Source: Rhodospirillales bacterium (GTDB lineage Bacteria; Pseudomonadota; Alphaproteobacteria; Rhodospirillales; SHVQ01). From it: a stretch of 64,000 nt of DNA. Made by a program: the position numbers. Every line of letters starts with the position of its first letter. Within the stretch, counting starts at the first letter, position 1. This document shows positions 24,001 to 30,000 of this stretch, piece after piece. Location: NCBI GenBank assembly GCA_009694195.1, contig SHVQ01000004.1, positions 957 through 64,956 on the forward strand, written 5' to 3'.

Positions 24001-27000
24001 TCGTCGGGCTGCCTCACGACACACCCGAACAGCTGGCGGAAAACCTTCCGTTCCTCCGGAACGTGGCGAAGAGGGGGGTGGTCGATGTGTCGGTCGGTTT
24101 CTACATGGCGCTGCCGGGCACCGAGCTGTTTTACAGCCTCTACGACTCCGGCAAGGTCGTGCTCGACCGCGACTACTTCATCCACATCCTGCACGCAACC
24201 GCGCTGCACCCGTCGAAGACCTATAACGGCTCCTTGAGCAAGCTCACGCTGATCTATTGGAAGTTCCGCTTTTTCTGGTCCTTCTACGCCGAAGGAAAAG
24301 GGTTCTTCCGTTCGATCTGGCGAGGGCTTCAGGGCGCCTTTACGGACTCTCATGACTCGCGGTTGGCGGGAGCCGTCCACAACGCGGTCACGAGCTCCTG
24401 GCAATCGCTGAAGGCTCAGTTCGGGAGGCGGTGGTTGTCGCCCGAGCAGGACCAGGCGATGTTCCGTGAGTGGGATGCCATCTACCGCTCGATCCGAAAA
24501 CATAATCTGGCGGTCGGAGCCGCGAAGATTTCGCCCGCCGACACGACGGAGCTTCATCGAGGCAACGTGATCGACGTGATTCGCCTCAATCACGAAACGC
24601 CGAGACAGATGACCATCAAACCGGACCTTCCTTCCGGCCGGGCCGATCTGCCGCTTGCGGCAACGGCCTGAACGCTGACGACGTCGAGGCCTTCGAGAGG
24701 CCCCAGTGCACGGTCTTCCGCGTCCCATTCTGATCCTTATCAAGGTTTCCATCGCCGCCGGCCTCATCTGGTGGCTGGTCGGCAGCGGGCGGCTCGATCT
24801 CTCCGCGCCGGAGCTGGATCTCGTGAGCCCCTATCTGATCCTCGGCTTCGCCGCCTATCTCGGAAGCATTTTCCCGACGATCGTCCGTTGGCGGCGGCTG
24901 CTCCGCATGTACCGGCTCGAGTTCGGCCTTTGGCGGATCACGCGCTGGATCTGGATCGCCGAGTTTTTCGCCCTCGTGCTTCCCGGCGGAACCGGGGCGG
25001 AGCTGTCGCGCGGCTATTACGTCTACCGCAGCACGCCCGATCTCAAGGCGGCGGCGCTCTCGACCGTGTTCATCGACCGCGTGTTCGGGCTATGGGCGCT
25101 CCTCCTGCTCGGCACGATCGCGTTCGGCATCCTTTACGGAAACGCGCCCGACACGACGGGGCCGCTCGCCTGGGCCGGAGCCGCGACGGCGCTCCTCTTT
25201 GCCGGGACGTCCGCGTTCTTTCTGCTGCTCGGCATCGAGCCCGCCCAAAAGGCTCTCTTGCGGCTCGCAACCGAGCGTATCCGTGAGGTCGTGGAGCCGG
25301 TGACGGCGGTCTACGGCCGTGAGCGCAAGACCATGATCGCCAGCCTCCTGCTGTCGCTGGCCTCCCAGTTGTGCCTGATGATTTCTTTTCTGTGCGCCGG
25401 CTGGATCGTCGGCACGGAGGTCACCTGGATTGCCGTTTTCGCGGCCGTGCCCCTGATCTACATTTCGAATTATCTGCCGATCGCGCCCGGCGGTATCGGC
25501 GTCGGCGAAGCGGCGGCTTCGTTCTTGTTCGCCGCGGCGGGCGTGGCCAACGGCGCCGCCATCATGCTGGTGGTCCGGCTCTGGATCGTCGCCGTCCAGC
25601 TTTCCGGCGGTTTGGTCTATCTTCTGCACCGAGAGCCATCCACAGAGAGGATGGCGAGCGTCGCCGCGCGCTGATCCGGGTGGACTGACGATGATCGAAC
25701 GAATCATGCATGGCGGGCAGCTGCTGGCGATTTTGGTGCCCAGGCGGTTCCGCGAGCCGGGCACGCAGTTCGTCACGTCGCCTGAGTCGGCGATGCAGCT
25801 CGCGGTGATTTTGCACCCGAAAGCAAAGATCATTCAGCCCCACGTGCATAAGCCCTACCCGCGCGAGGTAAGCGAGACCCAGGAGGTCCTCGTCATCACC
25901 AAGGGCCGAATTCGGGTGGATTTCTACGATGACGCGCAGGCTTATCTGGAAAGCCGCGTGCTCGAGGCGGGCGACACGATTCTCTTGATGACAGGCGCGC
26001 ACGGCTTTGAGGTTCTGGAAGACGTGGAGATGATCGAAGCGAAGACCGGTCCCTTTCTCCCGGCCGAGGACAAGACCCGCTTCGCGCCTGTTTCGCCCGA
26101 TCGGGTGAAGTTCAAAAGTTGATGGCGGACTTCATCCCGGTGAACGAGCCGCTGCTCCAGGGCAACGAGCTCGCCTATGTCACCGAGTGCCTGACCAGCG
26201 GATGGATTTCCTCCGAGGGCCGGTTCGTTCACGGCTTCGAGGAGGGATTTTCCGCGCGCGTCGGGCGGCGGTTCGGGATCGGGGTCTCCAACGGCTCGGA
26301 TGCGCTCGAGCTCGCCGTTGCCGCGCTCGGCCTCGGCCCCGGCGATGACGTCATCCTGCCCGCGTTTACGATCATATCCTGCGCAAGCGCCGTGGTTCGG
26401 GCGGGCGCGACGCCGGTGCTCGTCGACAGCGATCCCGTTGCCTGGACGATGGACCCGGAAGCCGTCCGGAAGAAGATCACGTCCCGCACCCGGGCGATCA
26501 TGGCCGTTCACATCTACGGCCTGCCGGTCGATATGGACCCGGTGATGCAGTTGGCCCGCGAGCACGGGCTCAAGCTCATCGAGGACGCGGCGGAGGCGAT
26601 CGGGCTCGCCTACAAGGGGCGCCCGTGCGGAAGCTTCGGCGACATCAGCACCTTCAGCTTCTATGCCAACAAGCACGTGACGACAGGCGAAGGCGGGCTC
26701 GTCGCGGTCGACGACCCAGCGCTCGAGAAGCGCTGCCGGTCGCTCCGCAACCTCTGCTTCGGCGAGGAGCGATTCATCCACCACGGCCTCGGCTGGAACA
26801 TGCGCATGACGAATATCCAAGCCGCGATCGGCCTCGCCCAGCTCGAGAGCCTGGAGCGCGCGATCGAGCGGAAGAAGCGGATGGGCCGGCGTTACACGGA
26901 TCTCATGAAAGACATCGCCGGCATCAAACATCCGGCTGCCGCAACCGCGGGCGCCGAGAACGTCTATTGGGTGTACGGCCTCGTGCTGGACGACGATGTC

Positions 27001-30000
27001 CCGTTCGACGCCAGGGAGGCCATGCGCCGGCTGAAAGCCATGGGCATCGATACGCGGCCTTTCTTTTGGCCGATGCACGAACAGCCGGTGTTCCAGACGA
27101 TGGGGCTGTTCAAGGGCGAGCGCTATCCGGTTGTCGAGAGGCTCGCGCGGCGCGGATTCTACGTGCCGAGCGGGCTCGCGCTCACGGATGACCAGATGCA
27201 GCGGGTCGCCGACGGCGTGCGGCGGCTGATGTCTCGTTGAGGATTAGTCGCGTCGAAACCGCGTGGCCAGGATGCGGACGCAGTACTGGATGCCCAACCA
27301 GAGAAACGGCCCCAGGCTCGGAAACGACTTCGAGTTGCCTTCCTGCCGGTCGAGCAGCGTATACGGGACCTCGACGATCTTGAGTCCCTTCCGGCAGCAG
27401 CCGTAGACGAACTCGATGAAGAAGTCGCCGTACCCATAGGCGACGGGAAGCACGGAGTCGAACACGCTGCGCCGGACGGCGGCGACGCAGCTGTCGTAGT
27501 CCTTGATCTCGTATCCGAGAACCAGATTGGCGAAGCCGTTCACGAGCCGGCTGCACGCCACGCGAAAGGGGTGGCGCTCGTCCCCGCCGCCCGCGACGAA
27601 ACGGGATGCGATCGCGAGGTCGTGGGTATCCGTCGCGGCGATCAGCGGCTTGAGCAGGCGCGATTCGGCCGCCATGTCGGCGTCGATCCAGGCGACGATA
27701 TCGCCTTTGCTTTCTATGATTCCCCGCGTGATTGCGGACGCAAGGCCCTTCCCGCGCTCGCGGTGGACGAGCCGGACGCGGGGATCGTTGAGGCCTTCGA
27801 TGATGCCGCGCGTGCCGTCCTTGGAGTTATCGTCGACGACGATGATTTCGACCGGCGCCCGCACGTGCTCGAAGACCGCGCGGATCGTCGGCGCCACGCT
27901 CCCGCGCTCGTTCAGCGTGGCGATCACGACGGATACAAGAGGGACCGGCGATTGGCTGCCTTGCGTCGTCAAGCCAGGCATCTCCTGGGAGAGCGTTCAG
28001 CATTGTCGGGGCGCACCAAAAGCCATAGGATGCCCGCCGCTCGATGATTGAAATCCACCGCCCCATCCCCTCTAACGCCCCCCTTTCACAAGACGCGAGC
28101 GCTTGGCGCCGACGCCCATGAAAAAGGCCCTCATTCTCGGCGTGACCGGCCAGGACGGCAGCTATCTGGCCGAGGTCCTCCTCGACAAGGGTTATCTCGT
28201 ATACGGGATGGTTCGCCGGTCCGCAACCGGCAACACGCGGAATATTCAGCATCTCCTTGATGATCCGGGCATTTTGGGGAAGCGGCTCTTCGTCGTCAGG
28301 GGCGACCTCGCCGACCCCACGTCCCTCTACCGGATCATCGAGGACGTCCGGCCGGACGAGCTCTACAACGAGGCCGACCAGGACCACGTACGCTGGAGCT
28401 TTGACATGGTCGGATACTCCTCCGACATCACCGGCGCGGCCGTCGGCCGGCTGCTCGAAATCATCCGCCAAGTGAATCCGAAAATCCGTTTTTTCCAGCC
28501 CGTGTCGTCCAACATCTTCGGCCGCTGCACGGGTACCGTGCAGAACGAGAGCACGCCGTTCACGCCGCAGAGCGTCTACGCCGTCAGCAAGATCACGGCC
28601 TATTATTTCACGCGCTATTACCGCGAGGCGTTCGGGATGCACGCATCGACGGGGATCCTCTTCAACCACGAATCGCCCCGCCGCTCGATCGAGTACGTGA
28701 CGCGGAAGATCACCAACTCGGCGGCGCGCATCGCGCTCGGCAAGCAGAACACGCTCGTGCTCGGCGATATGAGCGCGCGGGTCGACTGGGGATACGCGCG
28801 CGAGTACATGGAGGCCGCCTGGTCCATGCTCCAGCAGGCCGAGCCCGACGACTACGTCATCGCCACCGGCGAGGCCCATTCGGTCCAGGACTTCGTCGCC
28901 GAGGCGTTCAAGGCGGTCAACTTGGACCCCGCCCGTCATGTTTCGACCTCGTCCGAATTTCTCCGCCCGACCAACACGAGCAATCTCATCGGCGACGCAA
29001 GCAAGGCGCGGGCGCGGTTCGGGTTCGCCCCCAAGGTCAAGTTCAAGGAGCTGGTGAAGCTCATGGTCGAGGCCGACCTCAACGCCGAGTCGGGAGCGGC
29101 TCGCTAGTGCCCGTTTCCCGCCCACGCCGATGAGGGGAGCTGCCGGATTCGTCGCGAACGGCTTCCGTTCGCTCCAGCAATACGGCCTCGGCCTGGCGGC
29201 CAAGGTTCTCCTGTTCGAAGTGGTTTACGAAACGCGGTTCCGCTCCGCCACGTCGCGTCTGGTCGCGGGCGACGACCTCGACATCGATGAGCCGCTGAAG
29301 CGGCACGGAAGCCCGTATCTTCCCTCGCCGTATTATTTCGCCCATCGCGCGTTCCGGGCTCTCGGCGGCGACGTTACGGGCCGCAGCCTTATCGATTTCG
29401 GCTGCGGTCTCGGCCGGGTCCTTCTCTTCGCCTCGCAGTTTCCGTTCCGCAAGATCATCGGCGTCGAGGCCTCGCCGACGCTCTCTGAGGGCGCCCGGGC
29501 GAATCTCCGGCGCTATTACGCGCGCGTTGGTAAAACGGCGCCCGGGTGGTCGATCGAATCGGGCGACGCCGCCAAATTTGCGATCCCCGACGATGCGGAC
29601 GTCTTTTATTTCGGCGACCCGTTCGGGCCGGCGGTGCTGGATCCCGTCGTCCGGAACATCGTCGCCTCGATCGAGCGCCGCCCCAGGCCCGCGACCGTTC
29701 TCTACGTGCATCCGGCCCACAGCGGCGTCTTCCAGAGCCATGGGTTTCGCGCGGTCGCCGCCGAGGTGAACCCGCAGGGGCGCGGCTTCATGGTTCTCAC
29801 GCGTTAGCGCCGGCGAGCCCGATGTCGAACGTCGACCTCATCACGTCTCCCGCGCTTGCCGCCCATGCCGAGCGCATCGTCGCCGCCATCCGCAATTTCG
29901 CCCCCGGCGCGGACGTCAACGTGCGGCTGGCGCGGCCGAACGGTGGGACGGGCGCGGGCGACGAAGCGGCTACCCAGGCCGCGTGGGAATCTTACTGGAG

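Follow-up and report, generated by a model that had tools for sequence, protein, structure and literature searches.

In the Arn pathway, a pyridoxal phosphate (PLP) aminotransferase acts on a nucleotide-linked 4-keto sugar, a family 2 glycosyltransferase (GT2) loads undecaprenyl phosphate, a flippase follows, and an enzyme of the GT-C fold makes the transfer in the periplasm. In the three-component systems, namely GtrA/B/C, the Gram-positive CsbB/GtcA/YfhO and the pentofuranose system of Citrobacter youngae, a polyprenyl-phosphate sugar synthase, a flippase and a GT-C enzyme decorate a finished glycan, and this periplasmic glycosylation is established also on O antigens of the ATP-binding cassette (ABC) transporter type (PMC11127046). 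Here we analysed a stretch of 64,000 nucleotides (the window) from an uncultured Rhodospirillales bacterium (contig SHVQ01000004.1 of assembly GCA_009694195.1, positions 957 to 64,956), with a G+C content of about 66%. Four adjacent genes at 24706-27981, encoding a flippase-like membrane protein of the UPF0104 family, a cupin, an aminotransferase and a GT2, had been read in a preliminary description as Arn-like logic built from different parts. We found that a conserved module, and not a chance neighbourhood, is built around these four genes, and the three-component scheme is the mechanism family to which this module most plausibly belongs.

The UPF0104 family has its own background. In archaea it forms one protein with the Dol-P-hexose synthase AglD and has PMT/STT3-like enzymes as neighbours, and on these two bases a flippase function in partnership with GT-C enzymes was proposed for it in 2015 (PMC5898192). 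The bacterial members GpgF and HexF accompany cationic amino-sugar lipids, although their flipping is unproven (PMC12713373). Among the members linked to cationic lipids, flipping has been demonstrated for MprF only and is predicted for the others (PMC12713373; PMC5898192), and many domain fusions of UPF0104 are listed in a survey (bioRxiv 10.1101/2022.03.11.483950).

Third-position GC content gave the coding frames in the window, and the genes so defined were searched with the Pfam and NCBIfam models. The four open reading frames (ORFs) were found in the high-GC3 coding frame, with the coordinates and order given before, and the domain searches agreed with the type of each part. A fifth gene, 2 kb upstream, travels with the module; the preliminary description, which compared the locus with ArnT as well, had not named it. 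The five genes are the following:

20948..22756, plus strand: candidate GT-C glycosyltransferase (ArnT-like slot), 602 aa, polytopic, with a C-terminal soluble domain
24706..25674, plus strand: UPF0104 / MprF-flippase-domain protein, 322 aa, PF03706 (LPG_synthase_TM)
25691..26122, plus strand: cupin, 143 aa, below the cutoff of NCBIfam TIGR04366, with a cupin barrel in the AlphaFold model
26119..27240, plus strand: Per-like PLP aminotransferase of the DegT family, 373 aa, DegT_DnrJ_EryC1 at E 3e-112
27244..27981, minus strand: DPM1/ArnC-like GT2, 245 aa, Pfam GT2, with a full-length match to the Pyrococcus furiosus dolichol-phosphate mannose synthase (PfDPMS) and ArnC

The conservation of the group was evident in related loci, which we designate by L numbers. 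The gene order of the window is repeated in L002 from the TIM-barrel gene to the gene for GDP-mannose 4,6-dehydratase (Gmd). L012 and L013 show the order GT-C, cupin, DegT, GT2, paralog of GDP-mannose 4,6-dehydratase (GMD paralog), methyltransferase, C-methyltransferase and Gmd. In L004, GT2, cupin, DegT and a methyltransferase are closely packed in one direction, and UPF0104, Gmd and two genes for B12-binding radical S-adenosylmethionine (SAM) enzymes lie beside them. L035 (4464-18404) is an 11-kb island on an 828-kb contig, with a phage-type integrase gene on one side and lepA on the other; its genes are those for a methyltransferase, the radical-SAM enzyme, UPF0104, DegT, GT2, the GMD paralog, a second methyltransferase-like gene, the cupin, the C-methyltransferase and an unrelated protein with 12 transmembrane (TM) helices, and the module GT2 is its only glycosyltransferase. 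The compactness of this island between the integrase gene and lepA suggests horizontal mobility of the module. Furthermore, in L051, from a distant lineage, the order GT2, DegT, methyltransferase, UPF0104 and radical SAM appears again with a different nucleotidyltransferase/nucleotide-sugar route, and in L006, L037 and L038 UPF0104 is flanked by DegT and a different GT2. We therefore reject a chance juxtaposition of the four genes, given that their synteny extends over more than 10 independent contigs.

Regarding the aminotransferase, its closest solved relative was the Caulobacter perosamine synthetase 3BN1 (E 1.6e-85, 290.7 bits, residues 6-365), the next family in the PDB following at E 1e-63, and the catalytic Schiff-base lysine in the motif NKxxTTGEGG aligned with that of 3BN1. 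The sequence thus points to close homology with the characterised Per enzyme, including its catalytic lysine. The ArnB entries in the PDB scored between 1e-56 and 1e-49 and the PglE/WbpE types only about 1e-45, so that the possibility raised before of a PglE/WbpE-type enzyme is not borne out by this comparison. The best NCBIfam model was the GDP-sugar-specific LegC family, with 306 bits and below its cutoff of 420. The orthologs are 61-69% identical and invariably follow the cupin; the cupin-DegT pair is very widespread and is often trailed by a SAM methyltransferase of about 255 aa. We located this cassette, with a DegT about 60% identical, at L010 10001-12365, L011 10001-12356 and L004 3981-6321, in cyanobacteria and alphaproteobacteria; an ortholog of its methyltransferase is lacking in the window.

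The GT2 showed full-length similarity only to polyprenyl-phosphate glycosyltransferases, that is, to PfDPMS (1.7e-19) and ArnC (2e-10), whereas the remaining GT2 structures align only with the N-terminal 100 residues or so, the nucleotide-binding half. The motifs DAD and R-x-x-G-x-SK are present, and judged by its sequence the protein falls in the DPM1/GtrB/ArnC clade of polyprenyl-phosphate sugar synthases. The proposal of an ArnC-like loading enzyme gains from this result. Since its best relative takes a GDP-sugar donor, the GT2 also fits a GDP pathway. As had been noted, it converges on the aminotransferase with a gap of 3 nt (the last base of the aminotransferase is 27240, and the stop codon of the GT2 lies at 27244-27246); its orthologs are likewise convergent with DegT in L002, L012, L013 and L035 and codirectional in L004.

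The 602-aa protein has about 12 hydrophobic segments. We built a model on an alignment with 27 homologs, and AlphaFold returned a predicted local distance difference test (pLDDT) of 87 and a predicted template-modelling score (pTM) of 0.88. In a Foldseek search of the PDB the top match was ArnT (5F15, E 4e-4, TM-score 0.40-0.43), with ALG12, AftA, PglB and AftD among the others; the top six matches were all GT-C enzymes, and the matched enzymes all use polyprenyl-phosphate-linked donors. Two acidic residues, E41 and D62, are invariant and fall between modelled helices 1 and 2, and D94/D95 lie at the following helix junction. The sequence matched no solved PDB chain. Pfam DUF2079 (PF09852) gave 23.8 bits against a cutoff of 28.2 and over a 90-residue stretch only; NCBI uses the DUF2079 name despite this score, and our literature search on DUF2079 found nothing. 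On the modelled fold, the protein is a candidate GT-C enzyme that would fill the ArnT-like slot. Its orthologs adjoin the module in L002, L005, L012 and L013, and a GT2 sits beside the GT-C gene in nearly all related loci. The more distant GT-C relatives go with a dTDP-type route and a different DegT in L008 and L022, and with Rml genes in L009 and L023. The sugar route is thus swapped while the small GT2 stays by the GT-C gene, as would be expected of a GT-C enzyme that accepts any sugar handed on by the GT2. No similarity to the 602-aa protein could be detected in the 607-aa protein of L006 or in the 527-aa protein of L035.

A separate set of companion genes was also seen around the GT-C gene. 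It consists of genes for a carbamoyltransferase, methyltransferase, SGNH protein, CTP_transf_3 protein, HAD protein, TIM-barrel protein and 2-hydroxyacid dehydrogenase, and also SxtJ and DUF5989. It lies at 11713-20937 and 33031-33984 of the window and in L008, L015, L017 and L020-L025, and spans Rhodospirillales, Planctomycetes, Omnitrophota and Hydrogenedentota. Among the GT-C loci found, L020, from Magnetospirillum sp. UT-4, is the single one whose genome record is not a metagenome assembly. Our guess is that its product is a small acid or polyol activated by a cytidine nucleotide.

The UPF0104 protein is polytopic in the hydropathy scan and is a member of PF03706, scoring 113.9 bits where the cutoff is 33.4 (E 1.3e-32) and matching positions 1-296 of the 302 in the profile; with NCBIfam TIGR00374 it scored 34.4, under the cutoff of 43.2. 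Its clade is rare, as a search of 5.8 billion sequences gave only about 17 protein clusters at E<1e-50. Considering UPF0104 proteins at least 37% identical to that of the window and with usable flanking sequence, 12 of 14 independent contigs had a cupin, a DegT or a GT2 adjoining. The co-occurrence of UPF0104 with a GT2, put forward earlier as a check (there for DPM1-like GT2s), is positive for this clade. By analogy with the described family members we propose that the lipid-linked amino sugar is flipped by this protein. At L007 9935-18899 a more distant UPF0104 (34% identity) is accompanied by three UbiA-type genes, of the kind for polyprenyl-phosphate pentose synthases, and by two PMT_2 GT-Cs, a HAD phosphatase and AsnB; this layout is of the pentofuranose three-component type, with UPF0104 in the flippase position.

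The cupin had no Pfam match. The NCBIfam model TIGR04366, "WbuC family cupin", gave E 8.5e-10 and 38.6 bits, just below the cutoff of 42 bits, so the protein is a near relative of WbuC, as had been suggested, and not a member of that family. The literature that we found mentions WbuC only as a passenger gene beside resistance genes. There are more than 1500 homologs of about 60% identity across phyla (cyanobacteria, proteobacteria), the invariant residues include H42, H51, H53, E65 and H104, and the cupin gene runs with its stop codon into the start of DegT. AlphaFold modelled the cupin with confidence as a barrel (pLDDT 92). Its best Foldseek matches were the 3,4-ketoisomerases FdtD/FdtA/WlaRB and then RmlC-type epimerases, and these matches are weak (E 6e-3, TM-score 0.43); sequence and profile searches of PDB chains yielded spurious matches only and no solved relative. 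The cupin is an obligate partner of the aminotransferase, and from its modelled fold we propose it as a candidate ketoisomerase or epimerase acting on a GDP-4-keto-6-deoxyhexose. We know of no described GDP-sugar 3,4-ketoisomerase.

This proposal affects the sugar that had been assumed, a GDP-4-amino-4,6-dideoxyhexose made with the neighbouring Gmd enzymes. The GDP part agrees with the aminotransferase, whose nearest families (Per and LegC) are GDP-sugar enzymes. Nevertheless, the likeness of the cupin to 3,4-ketoisomerases makes the 4-amino assignment insecure: the amine may be at C4 (perosamine-like) or at C3, and the substrate of the aminotransferase may be isomerised or methylated first. 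The genes around the module that are relevant to this sugar are:

22827..24671, plus strand: B12-binding radical SAM enzyme, probably a methylase (Pfam B12-binding and Radical_SAM)
28103..29107, plus strand: GMD paralog, 375 bits with the gmd model against a cutoff of 415
29130-29807 and ~29822-30649, plus strand: two SAM-methyltransferase-like genes (Pfam), with orthologs in L002, L012, L013 and L035
30719..31936, plus strand: NDP-hexose C-methyltransferase of the TylC3 type (Pfam Methyltransf_13, _23 and _14)
31949..33022, plus strand: true Gmd, for the supply of GDP-4-keto-6-deoxymannose, 586 bits with TIGR01472 against a cutoff of 415

Only one of the two Gmd-like enzymes is therefore a true Gmd, with its TSE and YxxxK motifs intact. 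The other has SSN in place of TSE, that is, the catalytic Glu is replaced by Asn, and this change is kept in all the module orthologs (L002, L012, L013, L035). Its best PDB matches are true GMDs and in the L035 island it is the sole GMD-like gene; the altered motif suggests that it is probably not a dehydratase and probably neofunctionalised, possibly as a reductase. The TylC3-type C-methyltransferase is kept in the same four loci. The radical-SAM gene lies beside or near UPF0104 in the window, L002, L004, L005, L032, L035 and L051, and no NCBIfam equivalog reached its cutoff with the enzyme of the window. The likeness of the cupin together with the C-methyltransferase, the SAM methyltransferases and the radical-SAM enzyme points to a branched, methylated amino-6-deoxyhexose.

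We also looked for enzymes that would acylate the amine. None of the scanned coding-frame ORFs of the 64-kb window had a Hexapep, GNAT or formyltransferase domain in Pfam, so the earlier statement that N-acetyl-, N-acyl- and N-formyltransferases are absent holds for these domains in these ORFs. Only one gene-sized gap was outside the scan, and by eye its ORF resembles a short-chain dehydrogenase. The formyltransferase sequence motif was not found in the window, a loose regular expression for hexapeptide repeats gave only noise in the six frames, and no scanned ORF had a polysaccharide-deacetylase domain. Two SGNH/AlgX-like proteins of unassigned activity are present and genes for methyltransferases and carbamoyltransferase are abundant. 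As the locus has no N-acyltransferase, the lipid-linked sugar may be cationic or N-methylated.

Taking together the domain identities, the modelled fold of the membrane protein and the conserved synteny, we infer each enzymatic step, the identity of the loaded sugar, the flipping and the acceptor as follows. Gmd would produce GDP-4-keto-6-deoxymannose, and the cupin, the TylC3-type C-methyltransferase, the Per-like aminotransferase and the SAM methyltransferases would convert it into a GDP-linked methylated amino sugar, to which the B12 radical-SAM enzyme may also contribute. The DPM1-like GT2, which is without TM helices, would load this sugar onto polyprenyl phosphate at the cytoplasmic face. 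UPF0104, where present, would flip the lipid-linked sugar, and the 602-aa GT-C-fold protein would pass it to an acceptor outside the cytoplasm. The likeliest acceptor would be the glycan built by the rest of the locus, which has a WecA-like initiating enzyme and an ABC transporter. We give an even chance to this full reading, namely a three-component periplasmic glycosylation of synthase, flip and transfer that carries a GDP-derived amino-6-deoxyhexose.

Several observations weigh against it. In none of the 17 genome loci with the GT-C gene did UPF0104 lie within 10 kb, not even in the otherwise equivalent L012 and L013, so that it appears accessory and dispensable to the module. The GT-C gene is more faithfully accompanied by its companion set than by the module, and the TM-scores of its structural matches are moderate (0.40-0.45). 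The GT2 had no hydrophobic segment or TM helix in the hydropathy scan, unlike ArnC, GtrB and PfDPMS, and in most loci it is opposite in strand to its neighbours. Furthermore, another DPM1-like GT2 and one or more further GT-Cs are encoded in the window, which makes the pairing of synthase and GT-C ambiguous. Finally, the cupin-DegT-methyltransferase cassette of L010 and L011, from Insolitispirillum peregrinum and Sphaerospermopsis (DegT 62-63% identical), sits among ordinary cytoplasmic GT1/GT4 genes and has no UPF0104 or GT-C nearby. This means that cytoplasmic transferases can use the GDP-amino sugar directly and that the lipid-phosphate route is not obligatory.

These cassettes are the starting point of an alternative in which the cupin and aminotransferase provide the GDP-amino sugar for glycosyltransferases that build the repeat unit in the cytoplasm, and the GT2, UPF0104 and GT-C enzymes handle another sugar (mannose or a 6-deoxyhexose). 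The strand of the GT2 and the further GT2 and GT1 genes of the window would agree with this, the GMD paralog could give a neutral 6-deoxyhexose, and neither L009 nor L023, where GT-C relatives are accompanied by Rml genes, has a DegT. Nevertheless, we consider it unlikely, because GT2, cupin, DegT and methyltransferase form one tight codirectional run in L004, the module GT2 is the lone glycosyltransferase by the amino-sugar genes in the L035 island, and a GT2 and DegT are found again beside UPF0104 in L051, L006, L037 and L038. Another possibility is that the end product is a cationic glycolipid, that is, the GT2 would glycosylate a membrane lipid, the radical-SAM enzyme would remodel it and UPF0104 would move it to the outer leaflet. 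Parallels would be lysyl-phosphatidylglycerol (MprF), glucosaminyl-phosphatidylglycerol (GlcN-PG; GpgSDF), the HexSDF glycolipid and the hopanoid glucosamine/cyclitol ether (HpnI/J/K/L). The grouping of GT2, radical-SAM and UPF0104 genes, which recurs in the window, L002, L004, L035 and L051, mirrors HpnI/HpnJ/HpnL; however, orthology with the Hpn proteins was rejected on the NCBIfam scores, since the HpnJ model gave 105.7 bits against a cutoff of 577.6 and UPF0104 did not match the HpnL model. The full-length similarity of the GT2, restricted to polyprenyl-phosphate transferases, and the GT-C gene that adjoins the module in the window, L002, L005, L012 and L013 also argue against a glycolipid end product. 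The L035 island is without the 602-aa GT-C family, as a glycolipid end product would allow, but its uncharacterised 12-TM protein could take the GT-C slot. Although a free or methylated amine is plausible here, given that no N-acyltransferase was found, and UPF0104 proteins have been linked to cationic end-product lipids (PMC12713373; PMC5898192), we regard this possibility as less likely again than the cytoplasmic one.

A further alternative would make the aminotransferase a LegC/PseC-like enzyme that works with the nonulosonic-acid genes found at the 5' end of the window (NeuB, NeuC-like and CTP_transf_3), as the window does hold NeuB, a UDP-GlcNAc 2-epimerase-type gene and cytidylyltransferases and LegC is the top NCBIfam match. 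However, that score of 306 bits is below the cutoff, a LegH- or PseH-type acetyltransferase is not present, and the cupin, GT2, GMD paralog and C-methyltransferase recur where no NeuB-type gene was seen, for example in the L035 island. A NeuC/NeuB/NeuA set requires no aminotransferase. This explanation is very improbable and we treat it as rejected.

Returning to the three-component reading, we can now compare the module with the described systems. It shares with Arn the general logic of aminotransferase, loading GT2, flippase and GT-C transfer, the best structural match of the 602-aa protein is ArnT, and among solved proteins the GT2 has ArnC as its second-closest relative. Nevertheless, judged by the curated models, no protein of the module is an Arn ortholog: the aminotransferase gave 204.1 bits with the ArnB model NF008658 (cutoff 631), and the GT2, which is without the C-terminal TM helices, gave 48 bits with the ArnC model NF007986 (cutoff 529). 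The scanned ORFs hold no equivalent of ArnA, ArnD or ArnE/F and no formylation/deformylation cycle. The module follows a GDP/6-deoxyhexose route whereas Arn follows a UDP/pentose route, its flippase slot has UPF0104 where Arn has a small multidrug-resistance (SMR) pair, it adds C-, N- or O-methylation and radical-SAM genes, and nothing ties it to lipid A. The Arn-like logic is therefore partly supported: the parts are syntenic and the GT-C slot has a candidate with ArnT as its top structural match, while Arn orthologs and a link with lipid A are missing and the UPF0104 protein appears dispensable. The module is thus Arn-like in outline and better filed under three-component periplasmic glycosylation.

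There are also differences from the known three-component systems. Their donors carry glucose, N-acetylglucosamine or pentofuranose, whereas that of the module would be an amino-6-deoxyhexose; their flippases are of the GtrA or SMR type, whereas the candidate of the module is a UPF0104 protein (window, L002, L004, L035) that is not always present; and the GT-C enzyme is from an uncharacterised DUF2079-like family. In the window we found no GtrA- or SMR-like gene, the sole small ORF with at least 3 hydrophobic segments being an SxtJ-family protein at 11713-12102. The GDP-derived amino sugar, the optional UPF0104 in the flippase slot and the uncharacterised GT-C family are what is distinctive of the module. 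As in archaeal AglD (PMC5898192), a DPM1-like GT2 is coupled to UPF0104 next to GT-C genes, which there are PMT/STT3-like, but the module proteins are separate, bacterial and part of an amino-sugar route; flipping is predicted only in both. The flippase domain of MprF, GpgF of P. aeruginosa (GlcN-PG) and HexF of C. difficile share PF03706 and accompany free-amine lipids (PMC12713373). However, their lipids are phospholipid or diacylglycerol end products and not polyprenyl-phosphate donors, and they are made by a GT4 with a deacetylase or by an aminoacyl transferase.

Cassettes of a cupin 3,4-ketoisomerase with a DegT aminotransferase, and in some cases an N-methyltransferase, are known for dTDP sugars, namely Tyl1a/TylB/TylM1, FdtA/FdtB and QdtA/QdtB. 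The layout in L004, L010 and L011 is the same, with a cupin of about 140 aa, DegT and then a SAM methyltransferase of about 255 aa. The differences are that the module aminotransferase is nearest to GDP-perosamine synthase, and that the cupin has only a weak structural match to these enzymes and no relation at the sequence level.

Nearly all of the window, up to purH (54405), is filled by one very large glycan locus. It contains NeuB, a NeuC-type epimerase, cytidylyltransferases, an ABC exporter, GFO-type oxidoreductases, the SxtJ/DUF5989/carbamoyltransferase trio, many methyltransferases, SGNH proteins, a HAD phosphatase, a TIM-barrel protein, a heparinase-like protein, an AsnB-like protein, a WbpM-like dehydratase, four GT2 genes, one GT1, a WecA-like GT4 and three large polytopic membrane proteins. 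The CTP_transf_3, NeuB and NeuC-type epimerase trio, which are sialic-acid-like nonulosonate genes, lies at the 5' edge (3-3162), and the locus extends upstream beyond the window. A second polyprenyl-phosphate-type pair was found at 39610-42209 and is conserved in L009 and L023; it comprises a PMT_2/GT87-like GT-C (39610-41481) directly followed by a DPM1-like GT2 without TM helices (41469-42209), which matched PfDPMS with E 9.5e-23. A third polytopic protein with 11 TM helices and no Pfam match is nearby (44086-45636).

Some details of the annotation deserve mention. The longest ATG ORF at 16881-18266 (461 aa) is in a wrong, non-coding frame; read in the coding frame, 16963-18324, the region gives a second SGNH/GDSL-like protein. 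A methyltransferase gene on the minus strand (33740-35090) apparently switches reading frame near 34200, where the third-position GC shifts from the frame of ORF 33740-34885 to that of ORF 33981-35090, and this is either a frameshift or an assembly error. A promoter and terminator scan of 24400-28300 gave nothing above the shuffled expectation.

Two linked readings would go further, namely that the UPF0104 clade is a dedicated flippase for cationic or N-methylated polyprenyl-phosphate amino sugars, and that the cupin is a GDP-4-keto-6-deoxymannose 3,4-ketoisomerase/epimerase. We consider them unlikely. If the former were true, the MprF-type flippase family would extend from phospholipids to glycan donors, as a bacterial counterpart of the AglD fusion. 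If the latter were true, the cupin-DegT-methyltransferase cassette would make GDP-3-amino sugars (mycosamine- or mycaminose-like) or epimeric 4-amino sugars, and not perosamine. To our knowledge, no GDP-4-keto-6-deoxymannose 3,4-ketoisomerase/epimerase has yet been identified.

The three-component reading, if true, would add an amino-6-deoxyhexose to the short list of sugars delivered via polyprenyl-phosphate/GT-C systems. It would also give a testable substrate class to the bacterial UPF0104 clade, from a family whose flippase role is largely predicted, and a first functional context to the DUF2079-like GT-C family of Rhodospirillales, Planctomycetes and Omnitrophota, and it would mark a cupin that is very widespread as a likely missing enzyme in the biosynthesis of GDP-amino sugars. 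Furthermore, by analogy with 4-amino-4-deoxy-L-arabinose (Ara4N), a free or methylated amine on the surface glycan could change the surface charge and the resistance to cationic peptides.

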